From a virus, in IMG/VR virus record IMGVR_UViG_3300047173_000017: a DNA stretch of 54,428 nucleotides; one strand, 5' to 3'. This document shows positions 1-54,428 of the stretch, piece after piece. Below the pieces are notes generated by a model that saw only the letters and a list, made by a program, of their open reading frames with translations, was not told where the DNA came from and did no database searches. The translations under genes were made by a program, and so were the position numbers. Within the stretch, counting starts at the first letter, position 1; the number at the start of each line of letters is the position of its first letter.

Positions 1-127
1 GCGCGGGCCGCATCCAACCGCTGCAATAGCTGGCGCTTCTCTAGCTCGTGGTATTCGGCTTGGCGGTCCATTGCCGCGCTTAGCGACATGGCATTGGCTT
101 TCCAGTCCGGCTCGCCGGTCGGCGCCA
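1..127. repeat. Terminal direct repeat, copy 1 (identical to 54302..54428); circular-closure overlap
   Basis: Read by eye: bases 1-127 (gcgcgggccgcatccaacc...ggtcggcgcca) recur exactly at 54302-54428. A length of 127 equals a common maximal assembler k-mer. Confidence 0.9.
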
Positions 128-148
128 GCTCGTCTTGGGTCGTGTCTG

Positions 149-358
149 TCATCGTTCTACCTCACCTTCTGGGACGCACCGCATGTGCGCGTCGAGTTTG
201 CGAACCGGCTCACCTTCGGCCGGGTGATTGAAAACGTAGTCGAGATTTTCCTTCGCGCGCTGGCACAAGGCCAGGGTCGCGAAGCGTTTTTGATTCAGCA
301 CCCAGACGCCGCTGGGGTCGTGCCAGGCGATCAACAGGACGAAGATAAGAGTGGTCAT
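149..358 (-). CDS. Hypothetical small protein (69 aa) with hydrophobic N-terminus
   Basis: ORF track. ATG at 358 lies 1 nt after the stop of the upstream gene (360-362). N-terminus is MTTLIFVLLIAW. Member of the co-oriented leftward operon. Confidence 0.55.
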   Translation of the reverse strand: MTTLIFVLLIAWHDPSGVWVLNQKRFATLALCQRAKENLDYVFNHPAEGEPVRKLDAHMRCVPEGEVER

Positions 359-359
359 G

Positions 360-605
360 TCAGCCGCGGACGGTGGTCAGTTCGACCCGGCCGTGCCAGG
401 CGTGGAGAGTCTGGACGCCGCCAAGCTCGACGTGCAAAAAATCCGCAATCTCTTCGTGGTACATGCCGACGGCGGCGCACTGGTGCACCGCGTCCTCGAT
501 CTTCTCGGCCATTATGAAATTCTCTGATTCAATCTGAAGGTCGTACTCGATCGCCTTGCCGTTGTTGACGCAGCGCGCTGCAAACCAGGTCCGGTAAAGG
601 TTCAT
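360..605 (-). CDS. Hypothetical protein (81 aa)
   Basis: ORF track. Its ATG (605-603) overlaps the TGA (604-602) of the upstream gene as ATGA. Non-repetitive composition. Confidence 0.6.
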   Translation of the reverse strand: MNLYRTWFAARCVNNGKAIEYDLQIESENFIMAEKIEDAVHQCAAVGMYHEEIADFLHVELGGVQTLHAWHGRVELTTVRG

Positions 606-1279
606 AGATCAAGGCTCCGTTGTGTGGCGTGTGGGGTCCAGGTCGTCGGGTTCTGAATCGAGTCGAGTGCTTCCGCGTTGCACGCGGCGCAACCCGTGTT
701 GCGCTTCCAGTTCTGCGCGAGGTTCGTGCTGTCCGCAGACGCCAGTGGCCACCGCTCGCCGGCCTGGCCGAGCATCCGCAGGCCGTGAATCCAGGGAAGC
801 CTGGCGTGGCGCTTCGATAGCGCATTGAACGCCTCGTCCATGCGCCGGCACCAGTCGTCGTTGCCGACCTGCCAAAATTCCGCGCTCGAGCCAAAGCAAA
901 CGCGAGGGAATTGATCGGCCAGTTCGAGCAGATAGTCGATGGGCAGGGACAGATGCCAGACCGGAGCGCCGAGGTTTCCGTAAGGCCACCGACTGACCAT
1001 CTGCCGCTGCTCGAAGGCGGACCCGCCGATCACGTCGGGGATGATCGCCCAGTGCGGGTGATGCAGGATCGGGTCGAGCCACTTGATGTAACCGGCTTCG
1101 TCGAATGGCGTGTGCTGAGTGAAGGCGCTGAAGGCGCCGCTGTCGAACATGATCGACGAGGCAATCAGCAGGCAGGTCCGAAGGTCGTCCGGCCTGGCGT
1201 AGCTGACACAGAAGTTCCGGCCGGCGAGGCGAATCAGCTGCTCGCGCGGGGTCAGCGGGGTGCCGTGGTAATGGATCAC
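602..1279 (-). CDS. tRNA-guanine-transglycosylase superfamily / DpdA-like protein (225 aa); function tentative
   Basis: GTG start at 1279. Motif IMFDSGAFSAF resembles the catalytic DSGGFQ loop of TGT-family enzymes, and a later SADSTNLAQNW follows. Size fits short phage DpdA proteins. Assignment from motif memory only. Confidence 0.6.
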   Translation of the reverse strand: MIHYHGTPLTPREQLIRLAGRNFCVSYARPDDLRTCLLIASSIMFDSGAFSAFTQHTPFDEAGYIKWLDPILHHPHWAIIPDVIGGSAFEQRQMVSRWPYGNLGAPVWHLSLPIDYLLELADQFPRVCFGSSAEFWQVGNDDWCRRMDEAFNALSKRHARLPWIHGLRMLGQAGERWPLASADSTNLAQNWKRNTGCAACNAEALDSIQNPTTWTPHATQRSLDL

Positions 1280-1306
1280 AGTGTCAGTCGTAGCAGTGGT
1301 CGAGGA

Positions 1307-1534
1307 TCATCGCGCGAGCATGTCAGGATCGGGCAGCACGGTGACGTCCAGGCCCAGTTTCTCGGCGAGCTCGAGGTCGCGTTCGGTCAGCGTCTTTACC
1401 GCGATGCGGCCGTCGGCCAGGCGCCGCTCGCCGCCGCCGCGCGCAAGCTCGGCGATGATGCGAGCTGGTTCGTTGAGCGGGTAGATTTTCTTCTGGCCGA
1501 ACACGTTTCGGTAGCAGACTTGCATTGAGATCAT
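1307..1534 (-). CDS. Hypothetical protein (75 aa)
   Basis: Internal ATG of ORF 1307..1879. ATG (1534-1532) overlaps the TGA (1533-1531) of the upstream gene. The upstream part of the long ORF is Arg/Pro-rich shadow sequence. Confidence 0.6.
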   Translation of the reverse strand: MISMQVCYRNVFGQKKIYPLNEPARIIAELARGGGERRLADGRIAVKTLTERDLELAEKLGLDVTVLPDPDMLAR

Positions 1535-2133
1535 GCTGTCACCCTGTTGGTTTTTGACAGTCGAGCGACGGCAATCAGCCAGTCGCGAAAAGGTATCGGG
1601 GTCGCGGCGCGCTCCGGTCGCGTGACTTCCGGGCGCCAGCCAGGCTCCCCTTTCTTCAGCCGACCGCCGCCATTGCGCCGGCCGGAGTTCGTTATCAGGT
1701 GGGTCGACGGGCCGATGCTCAACGGAATCACCGGCAAGTCGTTCGGCTCGACGCCGACGATGTAGATCCATGTCGGTTTGCGCGCGCGGTGGCCGACCCA
1801 GTTCTGATCTATCGGCATCGTCCAGCCACCGAAGCGGTCGCGCCCCTCGCCAGGCCGAGGCATGTTGCACGCCTTCCATAGCTTAGAAAACGCGGGATGC
1901 TCGAGCGCGCCGCCGCAGATGCGGACGCACGCGACGGCGTGGATCGCCAGGTCCTTCTCGGATTCCGGCGCGGTCGATAGGTGCGACATCGCGCCCCACA
2001 AGCGGCACGGCGGGTGCGCGACGACCGGATACCGGCCGTGGTAGTTCCTGGCGTCGCGCACCGCGTCCCACGGGTCGACGTCGGGCAGGCCGAAGTAGCA
2101 CCCGCCCGTGTTGACGTAGAGCGCAGCGATCAT
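1531..2133 (-). CDS. Miniature DNA C5-methyltransferase-like protein (200 aa); function tentative
   Basis: ATG 2133 overlaps the upstream stop (ATGA). Ordered motifs: LYVNTGG (I-like), DPWDAVRDARNY (II-like), HPPCRLWGAMS (IV-like PC), ALEHPAFS (VI, ENV-like), GHRARKPTWIYIVG (VIII, RxR-like), TRPERAATPIPFRDW (IX-like). Confidence 0.6.
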   Translation of the reverse strand: MIAALYVNTGGCYFGLPDVDPWDAVRDARNYHGRYPVVAHPPCRLWGAMSHLSTAPESEKDLAIHAVACVRICGGALEHPAFSKLWKACNMPRPGEGRDRFGGWTMPIDQNWVGHRARKPTWIYIVGVEPNDLPVIPLSIGPSTHLITNSGRRNGGGRLKKGEPGWRPEVTRPERAATPIPFRDWLIAVARLSKTNRVTA

Positions 2134-2321
2134 CGCGGCTGCAGTTCGTCGGACGTCCCGAGCGCGTCGAGCAGCCGCGCGAAGCGGTCCGAGCGGCCGA
2201 GGTCCTTGTACGGGACCAGGCCTCGAGCGGACCGCCAGACAAGCCAGCGGTGGTTGTCGCACCACACGATGACCTGCCACTGGCCCATGTGGATCTCGGA
2301 CGCTGCGCCGATGCTTACCAT
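2130..2321 (-). CDS. Hypothetical protein (63 aa)
   Basis: Internal ATG of ORF 2130..2615, overlapping the stop of the upstream gene by 7 nt. An alternative ATG lies at 2288. Confidence 0.5.
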   Translation of the reverse strand: MVSIGAASEIHMGQWQVIVWCDNHRWLVWRSARGLVPYKDLGRSDRFARLLDALGTSDELQPR

Positions 2322-2527
2322 GCTGCTGCGTCGAGGATCGCTTGCGCGAGCCTGGCGGCGTCCTGGCGGCGAACGAAGATGACGGCGCGCTGGCGGTGCT
2401 CGTTCGGCTGAACCCGGCCGCGCGTGACTTCCAGCTGGATGCACTCGGCCGTCGCCGGCATGGTCCTGATGCGCGTCGAGTCCGCGCTGAGCGCCGCGAT
2501 CTCGCGGCCGATGGTCACGGTCTGCAT
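2315..2527 (-). CDS. Hypothetical protein (70 aa)
   Basis: Internal ATG of ORF 2315..2707. TAATG overlap with the upstream gene at 2527-2529. Confidence 0.55.
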   Translation of the reverse strand: MQTVTIGREIAALSADSTRIRTMPATAECIQLEVTRGRVQPNEHRQRAVIFVRRQDAARLAQAILDAAAW

Positions 2528-2661
2528 TACTTGCCTCCGATGTGGATGGTTGGTGGGACGCCGTCGTCGGGGTCGCCCTGGTCGACGGTGATGGCGCCGG
2601 TCTGCAGGCCGGCAAGGACGAACGCGGCGCCGATCAGGGCGCAGATGAGGTAGCGGATCAT
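2527..2661 (-). CDS. Small hydrophobic protein (44 aa, MIRYLICALIGAAFVLAGL...)
   Basis: AGGAG sits 7 nt upstream of ATG 2661. ATGA overlap with the upstream micro-ORF. One signal-peptide or TM-like segment. Confidence 0.5.
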   Translation of the reverse strand: MIRYLICALIGAAFVLAGLQTGAITVDQGDPDDGVPPTIHIGGK

Positions 2662-2837
2662 TTGCCGGCTCCTGGTGCGTTGTGGGGCGCGGTGTAGTGG
2701 GCCGCATTCAGTGGCGCCGAGGGCGCGTTGCGGTTGACGTAGATCAGCGCGGCGCAATAGGCCAGCGTCACGATGATCGCGATAGCGGTCGACCGGCGGC
2801 TTCCGGTTTTGGGTACGCCGTAGCGGTCCTCGTTCAT
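2658..2837 (-). CDS. Small single-pass membrane protein (59 aa), not in the supplied ORF track
   Basis: Hand translation: MNEDRYGVPKTGSRRSTAIAIIVTLAYCAALIYVNRNAPSAPLNAAHYTAPHNAPGAGK. ATGA overlaps at both ends (2834-2837 and 2658-2661). Confidence 0.5.
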   Translation of the reverse strand: MNEDRYGVPKTGSRRSTAIAIIVTLAYCAALIYVNRNAPSAPLNAAHYTAPHNAPGAGK

Positions 2838-3004
2838 GGCCGCACCAGCCGGATGCGGCTGCAGTGCTGGCAGACGAAGGTCGGGATCGCGTCGCGCAGG
2901 TTCTTGCCGTCATCCATCCTGCCGCCGGCAAGCGACTTCGGCTGCGCGCACCGCGCGCACCGCAGCAGCAGGCCGCGGATCGAGCAAAGCGTTGGGGTCA
3001 TCAT
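2834..3004 (-). CDS. Small zinc-ribbon-like protein (56 aa), first gene of the leftward operon
   Basis: ATG ATG at 3004/3001 with GAGG 5 nt upstream. Cys pairs CARC and CQHC. Confidence 0.6.
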   Translation of the reverse strand: MMTPTLCSIRGLLLRCARCAQPKSLAGGRMDDGKNLRDAIPTFVCQHCSRIRLVRP

Positions 3005-3044
3005 TGTTGCCTCACTGGTTGTACTACTGGTTGCACCAGGGGTA

Positions 3045-3073
3045 AATGTATGCCCGCTTGCGCCGTTTGTCAA
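3045..3073 (-). promoter_or_regulatory. Candidate sigma70-type leftward early promoter
   Basis: On the minus strand: TTGACA (3073-3068), a 17-nt spacer, then TACATT (3050-3045). It lies about 40 nt upstream of the first leftward gene, in the only AT-rich gap between the divergent blocks. Confidence 0.4.
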
Positions 3074-3086
3074 ATTAATCTACAGT
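3058..3086 (+). promoter_or_regulatory. Weak candidate rightward early promoter
   Basis: TTGCGC (3058-3063), 17-nt spacer, TACAGT (3081-3086). This would give a nearly leaderless transcript for the ATG at 3093. Poor -35 match. Confidence 0.2.
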
Positions 3087-3092
3087 ATTTTC

Positions 3093-3299
3093 ATGGATGA
3101 CCTGCCGACGCTTTCTCCGGACGACCTGGTGCGCCGCTGCGGTGGCCGGCGTCGCGACGTGATTGCCGTGTTTGCCAGTTTCGACGAGCCTCTGACGCGC
3201 GCGGCGCTGTCGCACTGGTTCCGTAAGACCGGCGCCGTGCCGGCGCAGCGGGTGCGGCAGCTGCGGCGCAACCGGCCGGACATCCTCGAGGGGCTGTAA
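3093..3299 (+). CDS. Cro/YdaS-like helix-turn-helix regulator (68 aa)
   Basis: Internal ATG of ORF 2682..3299 directly after the AT-rich gap. The segment TRAALSHWFRKTGAVPAQRVRQL resembles the YdaS/Cro HTH. First rightward gene. Confidence 0.6.
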   Translation: MDDLPTLSPDDLVRRCGGRRRDVIAVFASFDEPLTRAALSHWFRKTGAVPAQRVRQLRRNRPDILEGL

Positions 3300-3496
3300 T
3301 GGGCGACGTCGGCGAGCTATTCAACGCGGTGCGCGAGCACCGGCGCGACATGCGCGCCAAGCACGGCGTGCCGTGTCCGGACTGCCAGGCGAAGCTGCCG
3401 CGCGCCAACCCGTCGATCCTGCTGCCAGGCCAGCGGTGCCGGATTCACGGCTACCGGGACCCGCGGCCTTTCGTTCACCTGGGGGATCTCAAATGA
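3299..3496 (+). CDS. Hypothetical Cys-containing protein (65 aa)
   Basis: ORF track. TAATG overlap at the start, ATGA overlap at the end. CPDC motif. Confidence 0.55.
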   Translation: MGDVGELFNAVREHRRDMRAKHGVPCPDCQAKLPRANPSILLPGQRCRIHGYRDPRPFVHLGDLK

Positions 3497-3972
3497 GTTT
3501 CGAGGACCTGACGATCCGCGAGCAGCTGCAGGCCACCGGCCTGTCCGAGCTCAAGCTGGTGCCGACCTACCTGCACGACGACGAGGACCCGCCGCGCATC
3601 GACCTGGGGTTTTGGTCGTGCGTGTTCAAGTTCCCGAACGATCGAGCGATCCAGGTCCAGATGGAAGCCCCGGTTCACCCGATGTCGCCGCGCGACGTCA
3701 TGGATGCGGTCGGCCATATTCACCATTCAGTCGTCGAGCAGGTTCACCACGGCTGGATGGGCAAGGACGGCCGGTTCGAGCCTGCGATGCCCGACATGCT
3801 GTGGCACGTCAACAATGGGCGGGTGGTCGAGTGGCTAGATCGGCATATCCGGATCTGGCTGGTGGCGCGCATCGAGGGCGCTCGCGCGCTGGCCGAGCGG
3901 CGCAGCCTCGAGGACGCGCTGGCCGAGGCCGAGTGGCGTTCGGATACCGGCGTGAAGCCGACCCTGCAGTGA
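3493..3972 (+). CDS. Hypothetical protein (159 aa)
   Basis: Internal ATG (MSFEDLTIRE...) of ORF 3373..3972, coupled to the upstream stop by ATGA. Confidence 0.7.
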   Translation: MSFEDLTIREQLQATGLSELKLVPTYLHDDEDPPRIDLGFWSCVFKFPNDRAIQVQMEAPVHPMSPRDVMDAVGHIHHSVVEQVHHGWMGKDGRFEPAMPDMLWHVNNGRVVEWLDRHIRIWLVARIEGARALAERRSLEDALAEAEWRSDTGVKPTLQ

Positions 3973-12272: not shown

Positions 12273-13801
12273 GCGCGGTCGTCGCACAGACGCAGGGCGA
12301 CGCGTTCGTCGATGAGCTGGCCTACCGGCTGGCCGCGTTCGAGAATGACCCGGAAGGGTTCGTCGACTGGGCGTTCCCGTGGGGCGAGGTCGACACGCAG
12401 CTCGAGCACGAAGAGGGGCCCGACGCCTGGCAGCGCGAGCTCCTGGGTCGGATCGGCAACCAACTACGCGCCGGCGGCGATAGCGGTGCGCTGATCCTCG
12501 AGGCGATCCGCTCCGGCCACGGGGTCGGCAAGAGCGCGATGACGTCGTGGCTGACCATCTGGGCGCTGACCACGCGCAAGTTCACCCGTGGTGTAGTCAC
12601 CGCCATGTCGGACACGCAGCTGCGGACCAAGACGTGGGCCGAGGTCGCGAAGTGGTATGCCTTGTTCATTGGCAAGGATTTCTTCGAGTTCCAGGCGACC
12701 GCGCTGCTGCCGGACGGCGTGGAACCGGAAGAGTCGCGCGGCTGGCGGATCGACTGTGTTCCGTGGTCGGTTCATAACACGTCGGCCTTCGCCGGGTTGC
12801 ACAACAAGGGCGTGCGCCTGCTCCTGTTGTTCGACGAGGCGAGCGAGATCCACGATCAAATCTGGGAGATCGCCCGCGGCGCGCTGACCGACGCGAACAC
12901 GCAGATCATGTGGATCGTGTTCGGCAACCCGACACAGACCACCGGCGAGTTCTTCCAGTGCTTCAGCACCCGCACGCGCGAGTGGCACGGCACGACGGTC
13001 GACTCGCGCAACTCCCGCTTCAGCAACAAGGCGCTCATTGCAACCTGGATCGAGACGTATGGCGAGGACTCGGATTTCGTTAGGGTACGCGTGCGCGGCC
13101 TTCCGCCACGCTCAGGCATCAGTAACTTCATTTCAGTCGATGCGGTACAGGCTGCACGACGGCGGAATCTGGCGGCGCGTGACTACCTGCAGTATCCGAA
13201 GCGCATGGCCGTCGACCCCGCCCGCTTCGGTGACGATCAATCCGTGGTTACAGTCCGCCAGGGCCCGAAGGTCTGGCCGCAGTGGAAGTACAGCGGGCTC
13301 GACGGGCCGGATCTCTCGTCGCGGATCGTCACCGAAATCTGGCCTCATCACATGGACATCACCGGGTGCGCCGTGGACGCAATCGGTATTGGCGCAAGCT
13401 GTGCTGATGCGCTGGCCCGAGTTAAGCGCAACGATGCGAAGTTCCCGGTCCTAGAGGTCAACGTCGCGATGCCGGCGTGGCTGGATGATGAGTACAGCAA
13501 CCTGCGGGCCGAGCTTTGGGGCCGGATGCGGACCGGACTCGACCAGGCGCAGCTGCCCGACGACGACGAGCTCGAACAGCACCTAACGTGCGTGAAGTAC
13601 GGGTTCGACGGCAAGTCGAGGGTCCAGCTGGAATCGAAGCAGGACATCAAGCGGCGCGGCGATCCGTCGCCGGACTGCGGCGACTCGCTCAGCATGACGT
13701 ACTACGAGGACACGATCGTCAAGGCGGTCGCGGTGCGCGCGCGCGTCATTCCACGCAAGGCGCCGCGGGTCGTGCTGTGGCGCGGACAGCAGGTTAGCTA
13801 A
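12269..13801 (+). CDS. terL: Terminase large subunit
   Basis: 510 aa. Walker A SGHGVGKSAM and Walker B LLLFDEASEI, followed by a C-terminal nuclease-sized domain. Directly precedes the portal gene. Confidence 0.9.
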   Translation: MSAVVAQTQGDAFVDELAYRLAAFENDPEGFVDWAFPWGEVDTQLEHEEGPDAWQRELLGRIGNQLRAGGDSGALILEAIRSGHGVGKSAMTSWLTIWALTTRKFTRGVVTAMSDTQLRTKTWAEVAKWYALFIGKDFFEFQATALLPDGVEPEESRGWRIDCVPWSVHNTSAFAGLHNKGVRLLLLFDEASEIHDQIWEIARGALTDANTQIMWIVFGNPTQTTGEFFQCFSTRTREWHGTTVDSRNSRFSNKALIATWIETYGEDSDFVRVRVRGLPPRSGISNFISVDAVQAARRRNLAARDYLQYPKRMAVDPARFGDDQSVVTVRQGPKVWPQWKYSGLDGPDLSSRIVTEIWPHHMDITGCAVDAIGIGASCADALARVKRNDAKFPVLEVNVAMPAWLDDEYSNLRAELWGRMRTGLDQAQLPDDDELEQHLTCVKYGFDGKSRVQLESKQDIKRRGDPSPDCGDSLSMTYYEDTIVKAVAVRARVIPRKAPRVVLWRGQQVS

Positions 13802-35872: not shown

Positions 35873-38800
35873 GTGGCCGACTGGCAGCGCGTCGACCAGG
35901 TCGCGAAGAACGACGCCGGTCAATACATGGCGCTGGTCGGCGGGCAGTGGCAGCCGGCCGAGGGTGGAGCGAAGAACGACGCCGGGCAGTACATGGCGCT
36001 GCTGTCCGGCGGCGGGATCGACCAGTCCGTGCAGGACCCGCGCGACGCGCAGGCGCAGGGCAAGGCGGGCATCCAGCTGCCGCCGGAGCAGCAGGGCCCC
36101 ACCGAGCAGCCGCAGGGCGCGGTGGGCCTGCAGAACACGCAGCCTGGCTACTTCATGGGCGAGGGCAGCAAGGCGCTTGCCCGCGGCCTGCTCGACGTGA
36201 AGCAGATGCCGCAGGCGATCAAGGTGTTTGCCTCGTCCGAAAACGTTAAGATCGCGCGCGACAAACTGGCCGCGTGGAACCAAATCGACGACGGCACCAC
36301 GCCGCCGCCGGCGCAGCCGCAGCCTGGCGACCCGGAGATCCAAGGAACCGAGGGCCGCACGCAGTCCTGGGAATACGCGCAGGCCACGCCGCAGCAGCGC
36401 ATCGACATGCGCGCGAAGGTCCTCAAGTCCATTTCTGATAACCAGGACGACCAGCGCGCGGCGATCAAGGTCTGGCAGGAGTTCGCCGCCCAGAAGCAGA
36501 AGCTCACCGGCCGGGTTCCGAGCCTGACCGACGTCCACGACGCAACCGACTTTCGGGACTACCTGACGTCGAGCTTGGGCGAAGGTGCGCTGCCGCTGGC
36601 CGCGATGGTCACGGCGTCCGCTATCCCACGGGTGGGGTTCGGCCTGGTGTCGGCGATCATGGCCGGGACGTCTGTTGCCGGCGGCACGGGTGCCGCGCTC
36701 GAGTCGGCACAGACGCCGGCGATGGGTGGGCAGCACGTCGAGGGGCGGTGGGTTCCAGGCCAGGCGGCGACCATCCAGCCGAACGACGCGCAGGCCGTGA
36801 TGGATCAGCGCCGGGCCGGCATCGGCCTTGCCGCCGGCGCCGAGACGGCGATGGGCGCCCTAAGCCCGACGCAGGCCGTGGGGCGCGACGCGCTGGGCGC
36901 GGCGGTGCAGGGCATCAAAAGCACCGTCGGGCGCGTGGCCGCGAAGGCGGGCCTGGGCGCTGCCGACATGGGCGTGCAGAACGTGGCGCAGTACGGGATG
37001 GACACGGCGGCGCAGGGCGAAACTCCGACCCTTGGCGGCGCTGCTGACGCGCTGACGACCGGCATCATCACGGGCGCTGCGATCGCCGGAGCGCACGGCG
37101 CGATGCACGCGCGCAAGGAAAACGCCGCCAGGGTCGCGGCGGACCAGGACGCGCAGATCCGCGCCGCGGCGCAGACCGTCGCCGACCAGGGCGCGGCGCC
37201 GGCGGATCAGATGCGCGCCGCGGCGGGGATGCAGCCAGGGGAAATGCCGGGTGGTCCCGGCGAGCCTCCGGCGCCAGCCGCGCCTGGCGCGCCCGAGGTC
37301 GTCGGTTCCGGCGGGGCGCCTACTGACAAAACCGCCGAAAGCCCTTCCGGCAGTTCTGGCAGTACCCCTCCCGCCCATGTTGACCCTGCGGTGGCGCAGC
37401 TGGAACAGGCGCGCGACCTGGCCAAGAACAGTCCGAGCGAGACGGTGCGCGCCGCGGCGCAGAAGATCATCGACGCGGACGAGCAGCGCAAGGCGGCGTC
37501 GACCGAGGCCGAGCGCCTGGCCGGCGAGGTCGGCCACACGATCGACGCGCTGCGGGACGCGCGCGACGCCGGCAACGAACCGCTGGCCACCGAGCTCGAG
37601 ACGGCGCTGGCCAAGCTGCAGAAGCAGGCCGCGAAGGCGCGCGAGGCGGCGGGCGAGGCGCCACCGAAGGGCGGCATCGAGGTCAAGGAAGGGACGGTCG
37701 AGCATATCGAGGTCCCGCCGGTCGACGAGGAAAAGGTCGGCAACGAGCGCGCCGCAGCGGCGGCGGCAGAGGACAAGGACGAGCGCGAGACGTACTACGG
37801 CACCGACCAGCCGAAGGACGCGCTGACCGGGTCGGACGCCGACCGAGCGGCGTCGCGCGGCCGGTCGCCGCTGCTCAAGGGGTTGCGGGACGCCGGCGGC
37901 ATCCGGACAGACCAGCTCAGCGAGATCGGCCTGGACCGCAAGCGGGCCGACGGCAAGCGGCAGTCCTGGTCGATCGGCCAGGGTCAACCCCTGTTCCACA
38001 AGCAGGGCGCGCTGGCCGACGATTCCCTGGCCGAGCACCTTCACCAGCACGGGTATCTGGCCGACGAGTCGGACGTCGACGGCGCGCATGAAATGGTCCG
38101 GCAGGAGTGGGAGAATCCCGGATCGGTCAAGCCGCTGCGCGAGCGCGACCGCCAGGCCGAGGACGCGCTGGCCGCGCGCTACGACCGGGAGCGCGACCAG
38201 GAGCTTGCCGAAGAGGCTCGAGCCATCGGCATCGACCCGACTGGCCGAACGTCCGAGGATTTGCAGAACGCCGTCATCGCGGCGCATCATGCGGACTGGA
38301 CTCACCTGGCGCAGCACGGTCTGACGCCAGACCACGCTGCCGATTGGGCTGAGGTTCACCGGGCCGCGCACCGCGACCTGGCGGCGACCGAAGAGGCAGG
38401 ACGCCAGTACCCCGCGCATGGCGACGACTTCATGCGGGCAATCAGGGAGATCAACGGTGGGCTGGACTCCGAGCGCGAATCTAATCAGGGCGGCGATCAA
38501 CACCAGTCCGGACCAGGCGGCGAGGCTGGCAAACCAGCAGTACGTGGCGAGTCTGCGGAAGCCGCCGGCGCAGATCGCGGCACCGGGCAAGAGCCAGCAG
38601 ATCGGGCCGGCAATGGTCAACAAGGCCGTGATGCCGGCGAACCCGGCGGCAACGCTCAGGCCGGACCCGAGGTTCCTGACGGGGGGGCTGAACGCCGAAC
38701 AGCGACCGCAGCCCAAGGGCGAGGACCTTTAGACGAAGCGGGCATCCGGCGCTTCGCGCGCGCCGCGCAGGCCGCAGCACAGAAGGCCGGCTTCGATCTC

Positions 38801-41800
38801 AAAGAGTTGTTCCGGAAGGGTTACGTCCGGATCGTCGATTCAAGCAACGCGTCACACCCGCTCGCGTCACACCCTGGGGTGTCGGCGCTTTACGTTCCTC
38901 CGATCCGCGGCGCCGACGGCAAGATGGAGCGCCGCGGCTACGTCGAGATTTACGCCGACCGCGCGGACCCGCAGCGCATCCCTGAATTGATCTTGCATGA
39001 GGTCGGCGACCACCTTGGCCTGCTGGGCCTGGGCCGGGACGGCTACGACAAACTGCTCAACGAGATCCTGGACAACCGCAACGCGCCGGACGTTCAACGA
39101 ACCTGGCGCGAGGTCGCGCAGAATTACCCGGATCTACCCGAGGGCGGCCGCGCGTTCTTGCGCGAGGTATCGGCGCACCTGGCCGAGACGGGCGCGGACC
39201 GCGGCACCACCAGGAAGCTGCTCGACCACGCGCAGGCGATGGCCTACAAGACGCTCGGCATCCGGCTCGGCCGCACCGGCGACCTGGTGCGAGGCCTGGC
39301 CGCGGCGATGGCACGCTCGATCCAGAACAGCCGGTTCGACATCGCGAAGGAACGCATGGCCATTCCCGAGAGGGAAGGCGAGAGCATTCGGATCGCGCGC
39401 GAGGCGAGCGCTGCCGGCCGGGCGGCGTGGGCAGCGGCGAACGGCGGCGCGGCGGCGAAGCAGACCGAAGCCAAGCTGCGCGGCCCGCTGTCGGCCGACC
39501 AGGCTCGAGCGCACCCGAGCATCGGACCCGTGATGGCCGCTGCCGATTCGCTCGGCCTGTCGGCGCTGCACGAAGCGACCGACTTCAACGTGCAAGAGGC
39601 GCACCACGGCGACGATGCGGCGACGGTCCATATCGGCACCGACGGCCGCGTGAAGATCACTCTTTGGGGCGCGCATAACGAGCTGGTGGATTCCGGCGAC
39701 CCGCGCGACCTGTCGCAAGCGCAACGCCTGGTCTATCACGAACTAATGCACGTCATGGATGCGGCGAACCGCGGCGGCATCTACTCGGCGCACCCGGATC
39801 TGTGGATTGATCACAACCGCGCCGGCGACATCGTCGGGATCGGCGACGCGGCGCGCGAGCTCATCCAGCTGTACCGCAACAACGACCTGCTGAACAAGAT
39901 GCTGCACTACCCGCTGCACACCGACTACTCCGGCATGGGACCGACCGAGCTGCCGAAGGAATTGTTCGCTCAAGCACAGACCGCGTATCTCGCGAAAACC
40001 GCCAGGGAGATTATCGAACGTGAAGCACCGAACGCAGCAAGGTATCTCAGGATTGCCCTCGAGCAAGCGCGTGGCGCCAAAGCCCCGCTTACAGAATCCG
40101 ACCGCCAGATTGCCAGGACCGCCTTCGCAGCCGCAACCCGACGCGGAACAGATGAGCGATCCGCAACAGCTGCCGATTCTGGCCGACCCGGCGGCGGCGG
40201 GGATGCCGGGGGTCGACCTGGGTTTGACGGAATAGCAGCGTCGCAGCGCACCGAGCGCGAGCGCGATCCGATCCTCGACGTGCGGCCGGCGCCAATCTGG
40301 AAGTCCGCGCTGCACGACGCTGTCGCGTCGATGCCGGACAAGAAAATGCCGGGCTCGTCCTGGCTGGCCGAGATCAAGGGCCTGGTCAACAAGGGCAAGG
40401 TCAAGGCCGAAGAGCTGCGCTGGGTCGGACTGGACGACGCGTTGAAGGCTGCGCCTGGGAAGCTGTCGCGCGACGACGTGGCGAAGTGGATCGCCGACAA
40501 CGGCGTGAGGCTCGACGAGGTTCGGTACGGCGACACTAGAAGAGAGCAGCGCGATGCCCTCAAGGCTGCTCGCAACCGCGTGCTGGATGTTTTGAAGGAA
40601 GCGCGCGGCTTCATGGAATCCGGCGGCGTCGACCCCGACGAAATGGCGTCCGCGATCGACGCATTGCAGAACCATAAGCCGCAGTCCGGCGTCGACGATC
40701 CGCAGCTGACGAAAGCATACGAGCTTCTTCGCGAGCACGCGCCGCCCGGCTACGACTTCAACACGATCAACGACGCGCACGACGCTCACGCGCGGGCAAT
40801 CGAGGATTGGGACGCCGCGAGGATCGCCGACAGCTCGCAATCGGCCACGCGACACGCTAAGTACACGCTACCAGGCGGCGAGAATTACCGCGAGACGGTG
40901 CTGACGCTGCCGTCGAGAAATGGAGAGGCCATCGCGCGGTTAACACAACAACGTCGCGCTGAGTCGGAAAAAATCCGGGAGGCGCTTATTGCGGTTCGTA
41001 GAAGCAACATCACTCCCAACGAATATGCGGAGATCAAGTTGGCCGCTACCGGCCGGATAGACGAGATTGACCGCAATCTGATCGAGCTCGCGAAGGAATC
41101 GGTCCGTCGTGCAGAACCACACTTCGAGCACAACGGTCACTGGCCGGGCGTCGAGAATCCTGTTGCCCACCTTCGCACGACCGACCGCGTCGACGCCGAA
41201 GGCAAGCGCAACCTGCACGTCGAGGAATTTCAATCTGACTGGGGCGAGCAGGGTCGCAGCAAGGGATTCTCTGACAAGAGCAAGGTCGCCGACGCCGAGC
41301 GCCGCCTTGAAGCGTTTGATGCCGAGACAGAATCCTTGAGGGGCGCGATCCTCGATCAAATGAAAGAGCTTGCGAAGAACGGCCAGCGCGATATCCTTAC
41401 AATGTCTGAGGAAGATAGTCAGCGGTGGCATGACCTGGACAGACAGCAAGCGCACATCACTGACGAGCGGTGGGCGCAGCGCGCACCATTGAATGATGAG
41501 TTGAGTCGCGCCAGAAGCGGCCTTCCGCTCGCCCCGTTCGTCGGGAACACTCAGCACTGGGTCGCGCTGCTGATAAAGCGGGCGATCCGGATGGCCGCAG
41601 AAGGTGGCTACGACCGCGTCACCTGGTCGCGCGGCGATCAGATCAACAACGTCCTTTCTATTTCGAGAGTCGTCAGGAAAATCTCCTGGGACGCTGAACC
41701 GAAGCGCAATCTGCGGCGCGTCGTCATGGACCTGACCCAGTACCGCGATCCGATGGAGCTCGTCGTCGACAACAGGAACGGCGAGATTGCACAGGTCAGC

Positions 41801-48524: not shown

Positions 48525-48651
48525 GCTTCGCCTGGACGCCGCCCTTCGCCTTTTCCTTCGCGATGTCGGCCTGGGTGATCGGGGCGCCGGGTTTCTTCCC
48601 GAGATCCTTGTGCATCGCCCCTTTTTTGATGGGTCCGATTTTATTTGCCAC
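48466..48651 (-). CDS. Small Lys-rich protein (61 aa)
   Basis: ORF track. The Lys-rich sequence reads MANKIGPIKKGAMHKDLGKKPGAP...GGKKKA. Confidence 0.55.
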   Translation of the reverse strand: MANKIGPIKKGAMHKDLGKKPGAPITQADIAKEKAKGGVQAKRAVFAENARKWNHGGKKKA

Positions 48652-49117
48652 GCGATCCTCCCTTTGGAAGTGTCACGGCATCTTCCGGAGCCATGCCGCG
48701 GGCGATCCTGTTGTTGATCGCCGATTGTTTGATGCCGAGCCTCAGCGCCCAGTCAGACGCCAGCAGCGTCTCGTTGTTCGCCGTGATCCATCTGTTGTCT
48801 GTGCGGTTGCGCTGCTGATCTTTCGCAGACAACCATCGGCAATTTTCAGGACAGTAATTGCCGCGAGGGTCGATACGGTCTATCTGAAGTTGGCCGGGAC
48901 GCTCGCCCATGTCGGCGAGAAAATTCGCGTAGTCGTGCCACCGCTCGCAAACCGAAATGCCCTTGCCGCCGTACTTGTGGAAGCATGGGTGGTTCGGATT
49001 GGAGCAGCGTGCCTTCATGCCGGCCCAAATCCGATATGTCGGACTCTGGACGCAACGGTTGCCATCGCGCAGATAGCCACCGTGTTTGAAAGCGTGGTGC
49101 ATCGCCGCCCCGGCCAC
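48641..49117 (-). CDS. HNH/AP2-type (homing-endonuclease-like) DNA-binding protein
   Basis: YRIWAGMKARCSNPNHPCFHKYGGKGISVCERWHDYANFLADMGERP...IDRIDPRGNYCPENCRWLSAKDQQRN is a widespread phage HNH/AP2-like pattern. The C-terminus is HTH-like. Lower-GC patch. Confidence 0.7.
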   Translation of the reverse strand: MAGAAMHHAFKHGGYLRDGNRCVQSPTYRIWAGMKARCSNPNHPCFHKYGGKGISVCERWHDYANFLADMGERPGQLQIDRIDPRGNYCPENCRWLSAKDQQRNRTDNRWITANNETLLASDWALRLGIKQSAINNRIARGMAPEDAVTLPKGGSRGK

Positions 49118-52455: not shown

Positions 52456-52782
52456 ATGCCGGCCTATCCCAAATCGCCGCACTACGAAAGCCGGCCGCTG
52501 CGCCAGCTGATCGCGACCCTCGAGTGCGTGCGCTGCGGGATCGAGGGGTACACGCAGTGCGCGCACATGGGTGGTGTGGCGCAAGGTAAGGGGCTGGGCT
52601 ACAAAGTCAGCGACTCGCGTTGTGCCGCGCTGTGCGGGCCGCACCCGAACGCCGAGGGGGAGATCGTCGTCGGGTGCCACGCCGAGGTCGGGGAGGGGCA
52701 CGGCGACCACGGGCTCGAGTGGATCGCCCGCACCTTCATCCTGCTGGTCGAGCGCGGGTTGCTGGTGGTCAAGCGGCGCTAG
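52456..52782 (+). CDS. YbcO/DUF1364-like zinc nuclease-type protein (108 aa), opposite strand to its neighbours
   Basis: LECVRCGIEGYTQCAHMGGV...GKGLGYKVSDSRCAALCGPH...GCH parallels the Cys/His pattern of lambdoid YbcO. GC3-rich codons. The long minus-strand ORF here is Arg/Gly shadow. Confidence 0.65.
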   Translation: MPAYPKSPHYESRPLRQLIATLECVRCGIEGYTQCAHMGGVAQGKGLGYKVSDSRCAALCGPHPNAEGEIVVGCHAEVGEGHGDHGLEWIARTFILLVERGLLVVKRR

Positions 52783-53234
52783 CCGACCCAGCGCCATTTC
52801 CCACCGACCAGGTCGTCGCCCACCGGCAGCACCATCCGGTCCGGCCGGCTGTGCCACCAGCGCGCCGGCCCACCGCTGTCCTGCTTGTCGAGCGTGAAGC
52901 CGGCCGCACGCAAGCTGGCGCCGCCTTCCTCCGGCAGCGTGTAGGTGTAGACCGGCCCGTGGCCAAGCGCCATCGCCGCGCGCCTGGCCGCGCCGTAGAG
53001 CATTGAGCACGCATTGCGCGTGCCGTCGGTGCAGAGGCGGGTGATCTCGACGGCGCGGCCGTCGTCCAGGTGCGGGGCGACCGGCCGGCCGACGATTGCC
53101 ACGCCGACCAGGCGCCCGTCAAGCTCGACGCCGACGCTGAATTTATGCCCGGCCGGCACGCGGTTGTGGCGGTGGTGCTGCCGGACAAAATCGCGGGCCT
53201 GCGCCAGCGTGACGGGTGCTAGCTTCAGGCTCAA
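52779..53234 (-). CDS. GNAT-fold acyltransferase-like protein (151 aa)
   Basis: TTG start in a TTGA overlap. ARDFVRQHHRHNRVPAGHKFSVGVELDGRLVGVAIVGRPVAPHLDDGRAVEITRLCTDGTRNACSMLYGAARRAA is a recurrent phage GNAT-like pattern. Confidence 0.7.
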   Translation of the reverse strand: MSLKLAPVTLAQARDFVRQHHRHNRVPAGHKFSVGVELDGRLVGVAIVGRPVAPHLDDGRAVEITRLCTDGTRNACSMLYGAARRAAMALGHGPVYTYTLPEEGGASLRAAGFTLDKQDSGGPARWWHSRPDRMVLPVGDDLVGGKWRWVG

Positions 53235-53908
53235 GCGTCGATCGTCCAGTTGAGCTCGAGCCTGGATTCCGGGTTCGTCCGATGCAGGTAGGCCAGCTGC
53301 GCGACGATGTTCGCGCGGTGGTGGCCGACGGCGTCGGCGTAGGCCGGACTGCGGCTGTAATTGCCGGCGTGCGACGTCCACTCGTATCCAACGAACGGTA
53401 GCTTCACCGCGCCGCCGCGCAGCGCCGCCGCGGCTTTGAGGAACCAATCCGCCCCCCACGGCAGAGACTTCGCGAACATGGCGTCATCGTCCAGCAGCGC
53501 GTCGGCCCGGATCAGCGCGAAGTGGTGGATCGCGCCGCGGTTGTAGACGCACTCGATCAGCTGTGAAGGTCCTTCGTGGCGGGTAAGGAACCCTCGCCTC
53601 TCGTCGACGTGCTCTTCGTGCGTGAACGCGACCGCGGCTGTCGTCGCCTCGAGCGCGCGGATGCAGCGCGCCACGGTGTTGTCGAGGGTCAGCATGTCGT
53701 CGTCGTCGACGAACCCGAAACAGTCGCCCCAATGAACATGCTCGAGGCAGCGTTGCGTCGCCTCCCCTTCGGTCGCGCCGTAGACGATCGTGTGCGCGAG
53801 CTGGTATCCCGGCGGCATCTTCTGCCGGCCGACCGAGTTGCAAGCGTTTACGAAAGCGGAGGCGCGGGTCAGGTGCGCTGGATTGTGGCGCGTAAAAATT
53901 CGGATCAT
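53231..53908 (-). CDS. GT-A (family-2-like) glycosyltransferase (225 aa)
   Basis: ATGA-coupled start (MIRIFTRHNP...). FGFVDDDDML provides the DxD motif in the usual position after an N-terminal Rossmann-like strand. Confidence 0.65.
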   Translation of the reverse strand: MIRIFTRHNPAHLTRASAFVNACNSVGRQKMPPGYQLAHTIVYGATEGEATQRCLEHVHWGDCFGFVDDDDMLTLDNTVARCIRALEATTAAVAFTHEEHVDERRGFLTRHEGPSQLIECVYNRGAIHHFALIRADALLDDDAMFAKSLPWGADWFLKAAAALRGGAVKLPFVGYEWTSHAGNYSRSPAYADAVGHHRANIVAQLAYLHRTNPESRLELNWTIDA

Positions 53909-54390
53909 CTGGATTGCTCCTTGAGGTAGGCGTCTACGCAGTGGTTCCATCCGTCAACGAACATGCGCTGCTCTATCGAGTCCAGGGGGTATGTCCGCAT
54001 CTTTGCCGGCACCTCGACGGGGCTGCCCCCCGAATGCGGGTGAAACCACCTGAACTTCCGCCCGCAACCACAACGCCCGTGATATTCAACCGCATCGATG
54101 CTGCGGCCCGATCCGCGGCAGGTTGGGCAAGCGTCTACGCCACCAGGCACTGCTGGTGCGGCGTAGATCAGATCGAGGCATTTCAAGTAGTCGGCATATT
54201 CTGAGTCGGCAAGCGTGTTGCGAAGATAGTTGTCGACTGCGTCATAAGCCGCACTACGCGCAGGATCATCCTTCGGCTCCGGCGCTCCCTTGGCGAGCAG
54301 GGCGCGGGCCGCATCCAACCGCTGCAATAGCTGGCGCTTCTCTAGCTCGTGGTATTCGGCTTGGCGGTCCATTGCCGCGCTTAGCGACAT
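53905..54390 (-). CDS. Hypothetical zinc-ribbon protein (161 aa)
   Basis: ORF track. CPTCRGSG...CGCGRKF. Its 5' end lies inside the 127-bp terminal repeat. Confidence 0.65.
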   Translation of the reverse strand: MSLSAAMDRQAEYHELEKRQLLQRLDAARALLAKGAPEPKDDPARSAAYDAVDNYLRNTLADSEYADYLKCLDLIYAAPAVPGGVDACPTCRGSGRSIDAVEYHGRCGCGRKFRWFHPHSGGSPVEVPAKMRTYPLDSIEQRMFVDGWNHCVDAYLKEQSR

Positions 54391-54428
54391 GGCATTGGCT
54401 TTCCAGTCCGGCTCGCCGGTCGGCGCCA
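54302..54428. repeat. Terminal direct repeat, copy 2 (identical to 1..127)
   Basis: See copy 1. Confidence 0.9.

Follow-up and report, generated by a model that had tools for sequence, protein, structure and literature searches.

A leftward phage operon that probably represents a mosaic of independent, mostly DNA-modifying cassettes

The window analysed here is the whole 54,428-nt IMG/VR record IMGVR_UViG_3300047173_000017, which contains a circular phage genome with a true length of 54,301 bp plus a 127-bp assembly overlap. A biological junction or repeat at the ends of the record was rejected; bases 1-127 are identical to bases 54302-54428 as an overlap of the circular assembly. Thirteen genes on the minus strand, here called g1 to g13, form a leftward operon of 4.5 kb that extends from a promoter across the junction to position 52779, where it meets a convergent gene on the plus strand. 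The features are as follows.

3045..3073, minus strand: sigma-70-like promoter, TTGACA-N17-TACATT, 10 of 12 positions matching
2835..3004, minus strand: g1, 56 amino acids, two CxxC pairs, zinc-ribbon-like, no family match
2658..2837, minus strand: g2, 59 amino acids, a hydrophobic stretch in the sequence suggests one membrane helix, ATGA-coupled to g1
2527..2661, minus strand: g3, 44 amino acids, a hydrophobic stretch likewise suggests a membrane helix, ATGA-coupled to g2
2315..2527, minus strand: g4, 70 amino acids, no family match, TAATG overlap with g3
2130..2321, minus strand: g5, 63 amino acids, no family match
1531..2133, minus strand: g6, 200 amino acids, miniature C5-DNA-methyltransferase fold, PHROG 12600 of unknown function (phrog_12600, E 4.6e-73)
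1307..1534, minus strand: g7, 75 amino acids, no family match, DpdA cassette bounded on the left by its stop codon
602..1279, minus strand: g8, 225 amino acids, GTG start, singleton phage DpdA (7-deazaguanine DNA transglycosylase family; phrog_887, E 1.1e-39)
360..605, minus strand: g9, 81 amino acids, PHROG 37496 of unknown function, inside the swapped segment
149..358, minus strand: g10, 69 amino acids, DpdA cassette bounded on the right by its start codon
1..152 (5' part) and 53905..54301 (3' part), minus strand: g11, 182 amino acids, orphan with a CxxC...CxC motif, no family match
53231..53908, minus strand: g12, 225 amino acids, GT2-family GT-A glycosyltransferase, invariant Asp run D68-D71 (DxD motif)
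52779..53234, minus strand: g13, 151 amino acids, TTG start, XF1762-family GNAT related to Mu Mom (NF045478, 174 bits, cut-off 50)
52456..52782, plus strand: convergent gene, 108 amino acids, Cys/His-rich (phrog_18962, E 1.6e-13; weak HNH-like match to phrog_131, E 3e-6)
54302..54428, no strand: assembly overlap, exact copy of bases 1-127 (k-mer overlap)

The promoter candidate of the original prediction was confirmed as a 10/12 match, and 2 promoter-like sites were observed against 0.4 expected from shuffled sequences. It is divergent from a Cro-like gene on the plus strand at 3096-3299, and no terminator-like sites were found within positions 1-3600. Nearly all operon genes are joined by overlapping stop and start codons, with ATGA overlaps at g1/g2, g2/g3, g5/g6, g6/g7, g8/g9, g10/g11, and g11/g12, and TAATG, ATGGTAA, and TTGA overlaps at g3/g4, g4/g5, and g12/g13, respectively; the sole gap in the chain, 27 nt, precedes the GTG start codon of g8. 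The coupled chain had been placed from 3004 down to 149 and then from 54390 to 52779. The chain is present, but position 54390 is an internal ATG, and the junction gene g11 starts at 152, overlaps g10 by ATGA and runs across the junction to 53905. At least eight small proteins, several with zinc ribbons, had also been proposed; eight proteins are indeed shorter than 100 amino acids, but paired cysteine motifs occur only in g1 and g11. All four enzyme-like reading frames lie exactly where they had been placed and have real homologues, and the family calls made for them were upheld in each case, as described below.

The DpdA-like protein g8 belongs to PHROG 887 and is 40% identical to the DpdA protein of Pantoea phage MED16 and 56% identical to a Rhizobium phage protein, with D46, D82, H165, and D183 invariant in the family alignment. 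It did not match the Pfam TGT domain, and its profile reached no TGT or DpdA structures by sequence, so that its membership in the DpdA family relies on PHROG 887, transitive homology and gene neighbors. Among 80 relatives of g8, an adjacent gene for a DUF165/YhhQ-like protein was identified in 56 and for QueD in 3; the window has neither. The g9 gene travels with DpdA: a homolog was found in the same locus in 5 DpdA relatives, and it adjoins dpdA wherever coordinates were checked. Homologs of the convergent gene at 52456-52782 were also located near dpdA in 33 of the 80 loci. [quoted passage not shown] The g8 protein would exchange guanine in the phage DNA for a 7-deazaguanine, probably preQ0 that the host synthesizes, since the phage contains no folE/queD/queE/queC and no YhhQ-type transporter. 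The level of modification is probably low, as in other phages with a singleton DpdA; the DNA of one of these, MED16, carries dADG (PMC8306585).

The C5-methyltransferase-like protein g6 was modeled with AF2 at a pLDDT of 91.8, and the best Foldseek matches were nearly all C5 methyltransferases, including DNA C5-methyltransferases for all of the 50 best PDB matches. Invariant in the family alignment are Pro41-Pro42-Cys43, which contains the catalytic Pro-Cys, and Glu78-His79-Pro80, whereas the Gly-rich motif I (SAM loop) and the target-recognition domain are absent. The family comprises 4256 homologs, with a Pfam domain in none of the 120 listed, and 0 of 41 members matched Pfam DNA_methylase (PF00145). 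No conserved neighbor gene was found. Microviruses also carry family members, as does a Xanthomonas phage with an 11-kb genome, and the only published mention that we found is the "putative methylase" Gp8 of microvirus Ebor (PMC11980548). The protein retains the half of a C5-cytosine methyltransferase that would carry out catalysis, with a nucleophilic Cys and a protonating Glu, and its most likely point of attack is C5 of cytosine in DNA, methyl transfer being the default guess. Lacking both the Gly-rich loop and a target-recognition domain, it would have an unusual cofactor site and an unusual way of choosing targets, and given the missing SAM loop the protein may not methylate at all. This uncharacterized family is the most interesting one left by the analysis.

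The GT-A glycosyltransferase g12 represents a rare and so far phage-borne family, with 157 distant cluster representatives out of 1.8 billion. Pfam Glycos_transf_2 was matched by 49 of 66 homologs, a match to chondroitin synthase was obtained (E 6.7e-9), and the model (pLDDT 90) yielded a Foldseek E-value of 8e-10 and a TM-score of 0.70, with polysaccharide and teichoic-acid transferases as the top structural matches. Homologs with annotatable neighbors adjoin virion structural genes in related SU10-type podoviruses, and no enzyme forming hydroxymethyl-pyrimidines, which would supply a DNA acceptor, was listed by the genome annotation scans. The protein is predicted to depend on nucleotide sugars, with an acceptor that is more likely a component of the virion or cell envelope than DNA.

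The GNAT call for g13 could be sharpened to a Mom-related protein, best classified in the uncharacterized NCBIfam family XF1762, with an additional match to phrog_1384 (E 5e-37) and a score of 29.8 bits against Pfam Mom, just above the threshold of 27.1. Residues H21, R66, and S77 align with H58, R111, and S124 of Mom and are invariant in the family. A direct repeat, CGCTTGA, borders the gene on either side. The gene encodes a compact Mom-type GNAT, not a canonical Mom, whose probable activity is acylation or aminoacylation of an amine substrate, either a nucleic acid or another molecule.

Sister contigs from other samples, L225/L227 (54,042 bp), L226, and L228, are 97% to 99% identical to this phage on both sides of the cassettes. 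In L225 and L226, a gene for a 763-amino-acid protein with Helicase_C and N6_N4_Mtase domains takes the place of DpdA and g9, and the swapped interval extends exactly from the g7 stop codon to the g10 start codon. The presence of a DNA methyltransferase fusion in this slot identifies the region as a locus for DNA modification. The g13 gene is an insertion absent from L226, L227, and L228, where the glycosyltransferase stop codon is joined directly to the equivalent of position 52778 at the CGCTTGA repeat. The same three genomes retained g12, while L225 and L226 retained g6 with an identical protein sequence.

The original prediction had proposed a survey of co-occurrence of the four families across phages, and in 213 related IMG/VR loci (median flank about 10-14 kb) they were almost never found together. 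Of the 80 DpdA loci, 2 contained a Mom-like gene and none a member of the other two families; of the 80 mini-methyltransferase loci, 1 contained a DpdA gene, 2 a Mom-like gene and 0 a glycosyltransferase gene; and 1 of the 30 Mom-like loci contained a mini-methyltransferase gene. None of the other three families was present in the 23 glycosyltransferase loci. Half or more of the 213 loci are short, and partner genes beyond a few kb could go unseen, so that the absence of partners is established only within that distance. Pairs of families were occasionally located 1 to 2.5 kb apart (L134, L164/165, L191, L024/L070), and they may thus occasionally act together.

We consider it probable that the operon is a mosaic island of independent cassettes, mostly DNA-modifying and probably directed against restriction, each acting alone and probably on different bases, such that C, G, and A would be targeted separately. 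A mosaic stack rather than a pathway is indicated because near-identical sisters swap or lack two of the genes and because the families do not travel together elsewhere; the stack of independent anti-defense genes, which had been offered as the alternative, is thereby the better supported. The analysis demonstrates the gene structure, the folds and families, the conserved catalytic residues, the lack of co-occurrence and the exchange of cassettes between near-identical genomes, whereas the chemical activities of all four proteins, early expression of the operon and the anti-restriction role are what we infer. The leading hypothesis had instead been a multi-step hypermodification by base exchange followed by glycosylation and/or acylation. 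In such a pathway, DpdA would insert a deazaguanine, the glycosyltransferase and/or the GNAT would decorate it, and the mini-methyltransferase would take part or would act on a second base. Translational coupling links all four genes within one operon, and 7-deazaguanine side chains can be acylated chemically, the aminomethyl group of preQ1 being one example. We know of no described system that combines these four families, so that such a pathway is unprecedented rather than contradicted by precedent. Nevertheless, the glycosyltransferase and mini-methyltransferase persist in sisters that lack DpdA or the Mom-like gene, annotated glycosyltransferase relatives lie beside structural genes, and no QueF or preQ0-synthesis gene that could provide an amine-bearing base was listed by the annotation scans. 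Mom-type enzymes, moreover, act on N6 of adenine and not on guanine (PMC13219725). The hypothesis is not supported, as the families almost never co-occur in relatives, an outcome that the original prediction had itself named as counting against it, and with the sister genomes already bringing it close to refutation we regard it as highly improbable.

It is less improbable, but still unlikely, that the operon is of a general host-takeover or moron type, with DNA modified by DpdA alone or by none of the four proteins. The glycosyltransferase would then act on envelope or virion glycans, the XF1762 GNAT would acetylate a protein, tRNA or small molecule, and the mini-methyltransferase would be non-catalytic or act on something other than DNA. 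The polysaccharide and teichoic-acid transferase matches of g12 and the structural genes next to its annotated homologs are consistent with this, as are the missing HTH-like insertion, R151, and Y159 in g13 and the missing motif I, target-recognition domain and DNA_methylase matches (0/41) in the g6 family. On the other hand, the Pro-Pro-Cys and Glu of g6 are invariant and every one of its 50 best PDB matches is a DNA C5-methyltransferase, the g13 equivalents of R111 and S124, which are essential in Mom, are invariant, and a DNA methyltransferase fusion occupies the DpdA slot in the sister phages.

Compared with known systems, g12 shares the GT-A fold, a DxD-type Asp run and family-level Glycos_transf_2 matches with GT2 enzymes such as the E. 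coli K4 chondroitin polymerase domain, SpsA, WrtF, RmlT, and AvpGT, but is a small, single-domain protein. The DNA glucosyltransferases of phage T4, in contrast, have a GT-B fold. By Foldseek, g6 has the same fold as M.HaeIII, M.HhaI, and the DNMT3 catalytic domains, and it shares the invariant Pro-Cys (motif IV) and Glu (motif VI position) with C5-cytosine DNA methyltransferases; judging from the alignment, its conserved C-terminal helix would occupy the motif X position. Unlike these enzymes, it contains only 200 amino acids in total, lacks the FxGxG SAM loop and the target-recognition domain, and is missed by PF00145. The Mom protein of bacteriophage Mu is a Gly-tRNA-dependent GNAT that hypermodifies N6 of adenine (PMC13219725). 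The g13 protein shares the GNAT-type core and the equivalents of H58, R111, and S124, but is shorter (151 versus 241 amino acids), has no equivalents of R151 and Y159, no Com-like regulator gene upstream, and no counterpart to the HTH-like insertion at Mom residues 175-209, which is essential for Mom activity and predicted to bind DNA.

The closest known parallel to g8 is provided by the 76 described DpdA-only phages (Hutinet et al. 2019; PMC6884629), which include Pantoea phage MED16 and Salmonella phages SEN1, SW9, and 7-11. The g8 protein shares PHROG 887 and the same invariant Asp/Asp/His/Asp residues with these singleton proteins, although it is shorter (225 versus about 240-260 amino acids) with a different C-terminus, and both this phage and the singleton-DpdA phages lack preQ0 synthesis genes of their own. 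Its own clade (53% to 72% identity) usually contains an adjacent DUF165/YhhQ-like precursor transporter (56/80), unlike this phage. As for other singleton DpdAs, the gene lies in a non-structural (early-type) region together with further genes for DNA modification. Such stacking is also seen in isolated phages, in which a singleton DpdA shares a gene block with other DNA methyltransferases: Dam is located six genes upstream of DpdA in MED16, and a C5 methylase directly downstream of DpdA in Epa33.

The operon that had been described as running leftward from a candidate promoter was recovered with corrections. It consists of a promoter-like site followed by 13 tightly coupled minus-strand genes, here numbered g1 to g13, which extend from position 3004 across the ends of the contig to position 52779, where the last gene meets a convergent plus-strand gene. 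The features discussed here are the following.

3073-3045, minus strand: promoter-like site (TTGACA-17 nt-TACATT, matching at 10 of 12 positions)
1531-2133, minus strand: g6, miniature C5-methyltransferase-like protein (mini-MT)
602-1279, minus strand: g8, DpdA
360-605, minus strand: g9, the 81-amino-acid protein encoded after g8
53231-53908, minus strand: g12, glycosyltransferase (GT)
52779-53234, minus strand: g13, Mom-like GNAT protein
52456-52782, plus strand: convergent gene for a 108-amino-acid Cys/His-rich protein

The promoter-like site is divergent from a plus-strand gene for a Cro-like protein. Two such sites were observed, compared with 0.4 in shuffled sequences, and no terminator-like site was identified in positions 1-3600 of the window. 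The stop and start codons overlapped or abutted at 11 of the 12 gene junctions (ATGA, TAATG, ATGGTAA, TTGA, or a 1-nt gap), the sole exception being a gap of 27 nt ahead of the GTG start codon of g8. The gene that spans the contig ends, g11, had been predicted to start at 54390, but was found to start at 152 and to encode a protein of 182 amino acids. Eight of the encoded proteins are shorter than 100 amino acids, in agreement with the original prediction; it had also ascribed zinc ribbons to several of the small proteins, but paired cysteines of this type are present only in g1 and g11. It was also noted that g9 contains another promoter-like site, which is weaker (TTCAGA N16 CATAAT, 9 of 12 positions, at 511-538 on the minus strand) and could independently drive the distal genes g10 to g13.

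The window is 54,428 bp long with a G + C content of 65.7%, and positions 1-127 are identical to positions 54302-54428. An exact terminal duplication of 127 bp is typical of circular contigs produced by an assembler with a k-mer size of 127, which gives a real genome size of 54,301 bp and makes the junction inside the operon a linearization artifact. The contig is a complete genome of this size, circular or circularly permuted. Family scans of its open reading frames identified an SU10-type portal protein and adaptors, the small and large terminase subunits, a lysozyme, RecT and an exonuclease, replication and primosomal proteins, and HNH endonucleases. The best match of the large terminase was 45% identical and came from a Pseudomonas podovirus. 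A near-identity search of both operon halves against the 50,697 phage records in INPHARED gave no DNA-level relatives, so no annotated close relative is present in that collection. The contig is of metagenomic origin, with a few near-identical contigs in other samples. The late region contained a single open reading frame for 3438 amino acids (35873-46189, plus strand), which at 10.3 kb covers 19% of the genome; at the same position, the compared contig L229 encodes a protein of more than 2317 amino acids with RadC and LPD38 domains. One of the HNH endonucleases (158 amino acids, 48641-49117, minus strand, phrog_3377, E 1e-51) was encoded in a second leftward block near RecT and the exonuclease.

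The strongest evidence on whether the 4 enzyme-like genes form a single system is provided by the sister genomes. Contigs L225 and L227 (one genome of 54,042 bp), L226 and L228, all from other samples, shared 97% to 99% identity with the window to the left and right of the operon. The g6 protein sequence in L225 and L226 was identical to that in the window. Between the stop codon of g7 and the start codon of g10, where the window contains DpdA and g9, these 2 contigs instead contained a gene for a 763-amino-acid protein with Helicase_C and N6_N4_Mtase domains.

L225, 10824-13115: Helicase_C and N6_N4_Mtase fusion gene
L226, 6112-8403: Helicase_C and N6_N4_Mtase fusion gene

The GT gene was present in L226 (98.6% DNA identity), L227 and L228, whereas the Mom-like gene was exactly absent from all 3, such that the stop codon of the GT gene was joined to the position corresponding to 52778 in the window. 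The Mom-like insert in the window is bounded by a direct repeat, CGCTTGA. The gene content of the sister genomes thus shows that DpdA and the Mom-like gene can be missing where the GT and g6 genes are present, and that the slot of DpdA can equally be taken by a DNA methyltransferase fusion of an ordinary kind. The presence of either cassette in one slot of genomes that are 97% to 99% identical represents a natural experiment, and suggests that different DNA-modification genes can occupy the same position. We also noted a sequence of 10 nt, GACTGACACT, located directly before the start of g8 in the window (1283-1292, minus strand) and before the start of g10 in the sister genome (L225, approximately 13421-13430), while g10 in the window is preceded by the related sequence CTGACA. 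This sequence may be a short linker where cassettes recombine.

Co-occurrence of the 4 families was examined in 213 loci from IMG/VR, whose flanking sequence had a median length of 10 to 14 kb.

Co-occurrence of the 4 enzyme families. Each line gives the number of loci of one family that also contain the others.
80 DpdA loci: mini-MT 0, GT 0, Mom-like 2
80 mini-MT loci: DpdA 1, GT 0, Mom-like 2
30 Mom-like loci: mini-MT 1, DpdA 0, GT 0
23 GT loci: mini-MT 0, DpdA 0, Mom-like 0

The co-occurrence across phages that was looked for was not found, as the families were almost never together. The rare pairs (in L134, L164/L165, L191 and L024/L070) were located within 1 to 2.5 kb of each other on one strand, which is as expected from shuffling inside a common island type. 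In 2 of the 80 mini-MT loci (L164, 9968-11078, and L165, 9968-11072), the mini-MT gene was followed immediately by a Mom-like gene of the XF1762 type; this pair is not adjacent in the window. A two-step pathway of the mini-MT and the GT, both of which are kept in the sister genomes, was also considered and was rejected because the 2 families never co-occurred elsewhere in the 213 loci.

The original prediction had proposed, as one hypothesis, a multi-step hypermodification of a base in which base exchange is followed by glycosylation and/or acylation, with a stack of independent anti-defense genes as the alternative. A joint pathway of the 4 enzymes is in our view highly improbable, since the GT and g6 are kept without DpdA or the Mom-like gene in the sister genomes and the families rarely share loci. 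The cassette swaps and the lack of co-occurrence instead favor the independent genes, and we conclude that the operon is probably a mosaic island of independent cassettes. The tests thereby dispose of a tempting but unsupported idea, that of a new DpdA-glycosyl-acyl pathway of hypermodification.

The predicted nature of the individual enzymes withstood closer scrutiny: DpdA by its family membership, its homology to a phage DpdA, its invariant Asp and His residues and the gene context in its relatives, g13 as a GNAT-fold protein of the Mom-like XF1762 family, g12 as a GT-A enzyme by fold match and DxD motif, and g6 as far as its fold and catalytic motifs are concerned. Single-sequence searches of the PDB with g6, g8, g12 and g13 gave no meaningful match, and nor did profile searches with the mini-MT, Mom-like and DpdA families. 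Alignments with hhalign of the family alignments to E. coli TGT, Mu Mom and the Epa33 C5 methylase were weak or uninformative, and only that to Mom was biologically sensible.

The g8 protein was assigned to PHROG 887, "queuine tRNA-ribosyltransferase" (E 1.1e-39), and matched 103 phage records in a tblastn search, including the DpdA of Pantoea phage MED16 (40% identity, E 9e-33). Phage MED16 has no preQ0 genes, yet contains dADG in its DNA, and its DpdA matches the TGT structure 2ASH by HHpred (PMC8306585). The relationship of g8 to TGT was not detected with Pfam TGT, with PDB sequence and profile searches, or with hhalign against E. coli TGT. An alignment of g8, its clade and the DpdAs of MED16, Eeyore and Epa33 showed that D46, D82, H165-G166 and D183 are invariant. 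In the crystal structure of S. Montevideo DpdA, the functional residues are the general acid/base Asp95 (with Phe99), Asp130, His181-Gly182 and the nucleophile Asp256 (PMC10164549); judged from motif order and spacing, the invariant residues of g8 would correspond to these 4 positions, and D46 lies within DSGAF, with F50 located 4 residues on, as in D95/F99.

Among IMG/VR relatives of g8 with 53% to 66% identity, a DUF165/YhhQ-like gene was present in 56 of 80 loci and QueD in 3 of 80, and one of these genes adjoined dpdA in every locus for which coordinates were inspected (the relatives are L001-L080, with L062, 10555-11151, and L079, 10678-11247, as examples; a further entry is L082, 5985-6515). 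YhhQ is a family of queuosine-precursor transporters, and the neighboring precursor genes in the relatives back the DpdA assignment. The usual pairing of this clade of short DpdAs with a YhhQ-like transporter points to salvage of the 7-deazaguanine precursor rather than its synthesis, and no description of such a module was found in the DpdA literature consulted. The window itself contained no homolog of QueC, QueD, QueE or DUF165/YhhQ, and these and FolE were not among the families listed in whole-genome Pfam and PHROG scans. Precursor genes are not obligatory in the recognized group of singleton "DpdA only" phages (PMC6884629), into which g8 falls by the lack of YhhQ and QueD, with dependence on a host precursor. 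The g8 enzyme probably gives a low level of 7-deazaguanine modification from host preQ0.

Within the swapped DpdA segment, g9 was assigned to phrog_37496. A homolog was present in the same locus of 5 DpdA relatives and adjoined dpdA in the 4 for which coordinates were checked, and g9 may be a DpdA accessory protein. The 108-amino-acid Cys/His-rich protein that is convergent with the operon (phrog_18962, with a weak match to HNH endonucleases) had homologs in 33 of the 80 DpdA loci. These were located on the same strand as dpdA where checked, sometimes in the order dpdA, g9, 108-amino-acid gene; the gene is also kept in the sister phages without DpdA.

The g13 protein scored 174.1 bits against NCBIfam NF045478, "XF1762 family" (curated equivalog cut-off 50, E 1.4e-51), and was assigned to PHROG 1384, "Mom-like" (E 5e-37). 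Against Pfam Mom it scored 29.8 bits (gathering cut-off 27.1), covering only positions 2 to 126 of the 202 in the profile, which is the N-terminal two-thirds. Mom of phage Mu moves glycine from Gly-tRNA(Gly) onto adenine N6, and requires R111, S124 and R151 as well as an HTH-like insertion that spans residues 175 to 209 and whose deletion abolishes activity (2026 study, PMC13219725). In a weak alignment (hhalign, E 0.023), residues H21, R66 and S77, which are invariant in g13 and 21 relatives, were placed opposite H58, R111 and S124 of Mu Mom. The g13 protein ends at residue 151 with no counterpart of the HTH-like insertion and nothing that matches Mom residues 184 to 241, and in the pairwise alignment R151 falls in a gap and Y159 is opposite Leu108. 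The lack of the insertion, R151 and Y159 makes g13 a compact relative of Mom rather than a demonstrated Mom. It is best read as a compact Mom-type GNAT of uncertain substrate; no mention of the XF1762 family was found in the literature searched.

The g6 protein belongs to PHROG 12600 (E 4.6e-73), where its function is given as unknown. It had 4256 detectable homologs of about 200 amino acids, with no Pfam domain in the best 120 of these, and no match to NCBIfam. The family was identified in tailed phages of Pseudomonas, Ralstonia and Caulobacter, in an 11-kb Xanthomonas phage genome and in microviruses. An alignment of 41 sequences contained 40 invariant residues, including V-x-A-H-P-P-C-R, G-G-x-x-E-H-P, Q...G-H and a C-terminal E-x-x-x-T-P; P41-P42-C43 and E78, the latter followed by H79-P80, are part of this set. 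From motif order and the fold match, we infer that P-P-C represents motif IV and E78 motif VI. The AlphaFold (AF2) model had a pLDDT of 91.8 and its 50 best PDB matches were all C5 DNA methyltransferases (M.HaeIII, DNMT3, DNMT1, M.HhaI), the best with E 1.7e-3, a probability of 0.98-1.0 and a TM score of 0.40 normalized to the short query. The same picture was obtained with a viral structure library.

The g6 family differs from canonical C5 methyltransferases by the lack of 3 features: the glycine-rich motif I, room for a target-recognition domain, and a match to PF00145. In the 41-sequence alignment there is no FxGxG SAM-binding loop, the consensus after strand 1 being LFARADSxYK with no conserved Gly pair. 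At 200 amino acids there is no target-recognition domain (motifs VIII-IX), and in the model strand 7 is connected to the C-terminal helices by loop only. Pfam DNA_methylase (PF00145) matched none of the 41 family members even at E <= 1. Clustering of the neighbors of 80 mini-MT loci gave no consistently present partner gene, for example one for a specificity subunit; the largest neighbor clusters were apparent alternative-frame ORFs over the gene itself, and the real neighbors were heterogeneous. A single mention was found in the literature, that of Gp8 from the microvirus Ebor, which HHpred identified as a "putative DNA methylase"; the authors were unable to assign the observed methylation to Gp8 versus the host methylases (PMC11980548). 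The g6 protein is probably a minimal enzyme of the C5-methyltransferase fold that acts on cytosine. It is a good deal less likely, indeed doubtful, that the family represents a new minimal class of C5-pyrimidine-modifying enzymes in which the covalent Cys/Glu chemistry is kept, the cofactor site is different and a target-recognition domain is missing. Such a class might install an adduct that is not a SAM-derived methyl group, or it might lack sequence specificity, possibly on single-stranded DNA, and the phage could then carry 3 separately modified bases (C, G and A).

A word-indexed homolog search with g12 returned only itself, while an exhaustive search gave 157 distant cluster representatives, mostly of 170 to 240 amino acids. 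Pfam Glycos_transf_2 did not match g12 itself and matched 49 of 66 aligned homologs at E <= 0.01. The family profile matched the GT domain of E. coli K4 chondroitin polymerase (E 6.7e-9), and the g12 model (pLDDT 90) matched 2z86 in Foldseek (E 8.2e-10, TM 0.68-0.70), a GT-A fold. In the DxD motif, D68 and D70 showed no variation among the 66 sequences, and D69 and D71 hardly any. The GT homolog followed directly after an SU10 adaptor-like gene in one syntenic group of viral loci and after a tail-repeat protein in another, and was located between adaptor genes and a 926-amino-acid protein in a contig of 48.7 kb, which belongs to the same SU10-adaptor, giant-protein type of podovirus. Loci with the homolog in or beside the virion structural module include L229 (8001-8645), L086-L089, L092 and L104, and L093 and L098-L101; homologs P0122, P0123, P0127 and P0124 were present on contigs of 1 to 2 kb only. 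A search for the family pattern in 185,579 bacterial and archaeal genomes gave none among the matches listed, which is not evidence of absence. In the lineage of the window, the GT gene has been relocated to the putatively early operon. The companion enzymes that would supply a hydroxyl-bearing base for DNA glycosylation, a thymidylate-synthase-like hydroxymethylase and TET, were not among the families listed in the whole-genome Pfam and PHROG scans. The fold cannot tell the acceptor, but the structural-gene neighbors of the homologs, which where annotated place the gene between those for adaptors and tail proteins, argue against DNA, and g12 is probably a GT2 enzyme that does not act on DNA. 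That most of the 4 enzyme-like genes do not touch DNA at all is unlikely.

The mini-MT family, with more than 4000 metagenomic members, and the XF1762 Mom-like GNATs represent 2 abundant, compact and uncharacterized families that are cheap to test for new DNA chemistry, and they are worth pursuing together with the DpdA-transporter pairing of the relatives. The locus as a whole is of an already known kind. Isolated phages likewise group a singleton DpdA with other methyltransferases: in MED16, Dam is encoded 6 genes upstream of DpdA in the same gene block, and in Epa33, a C5 methylase is encoded directly downstream.
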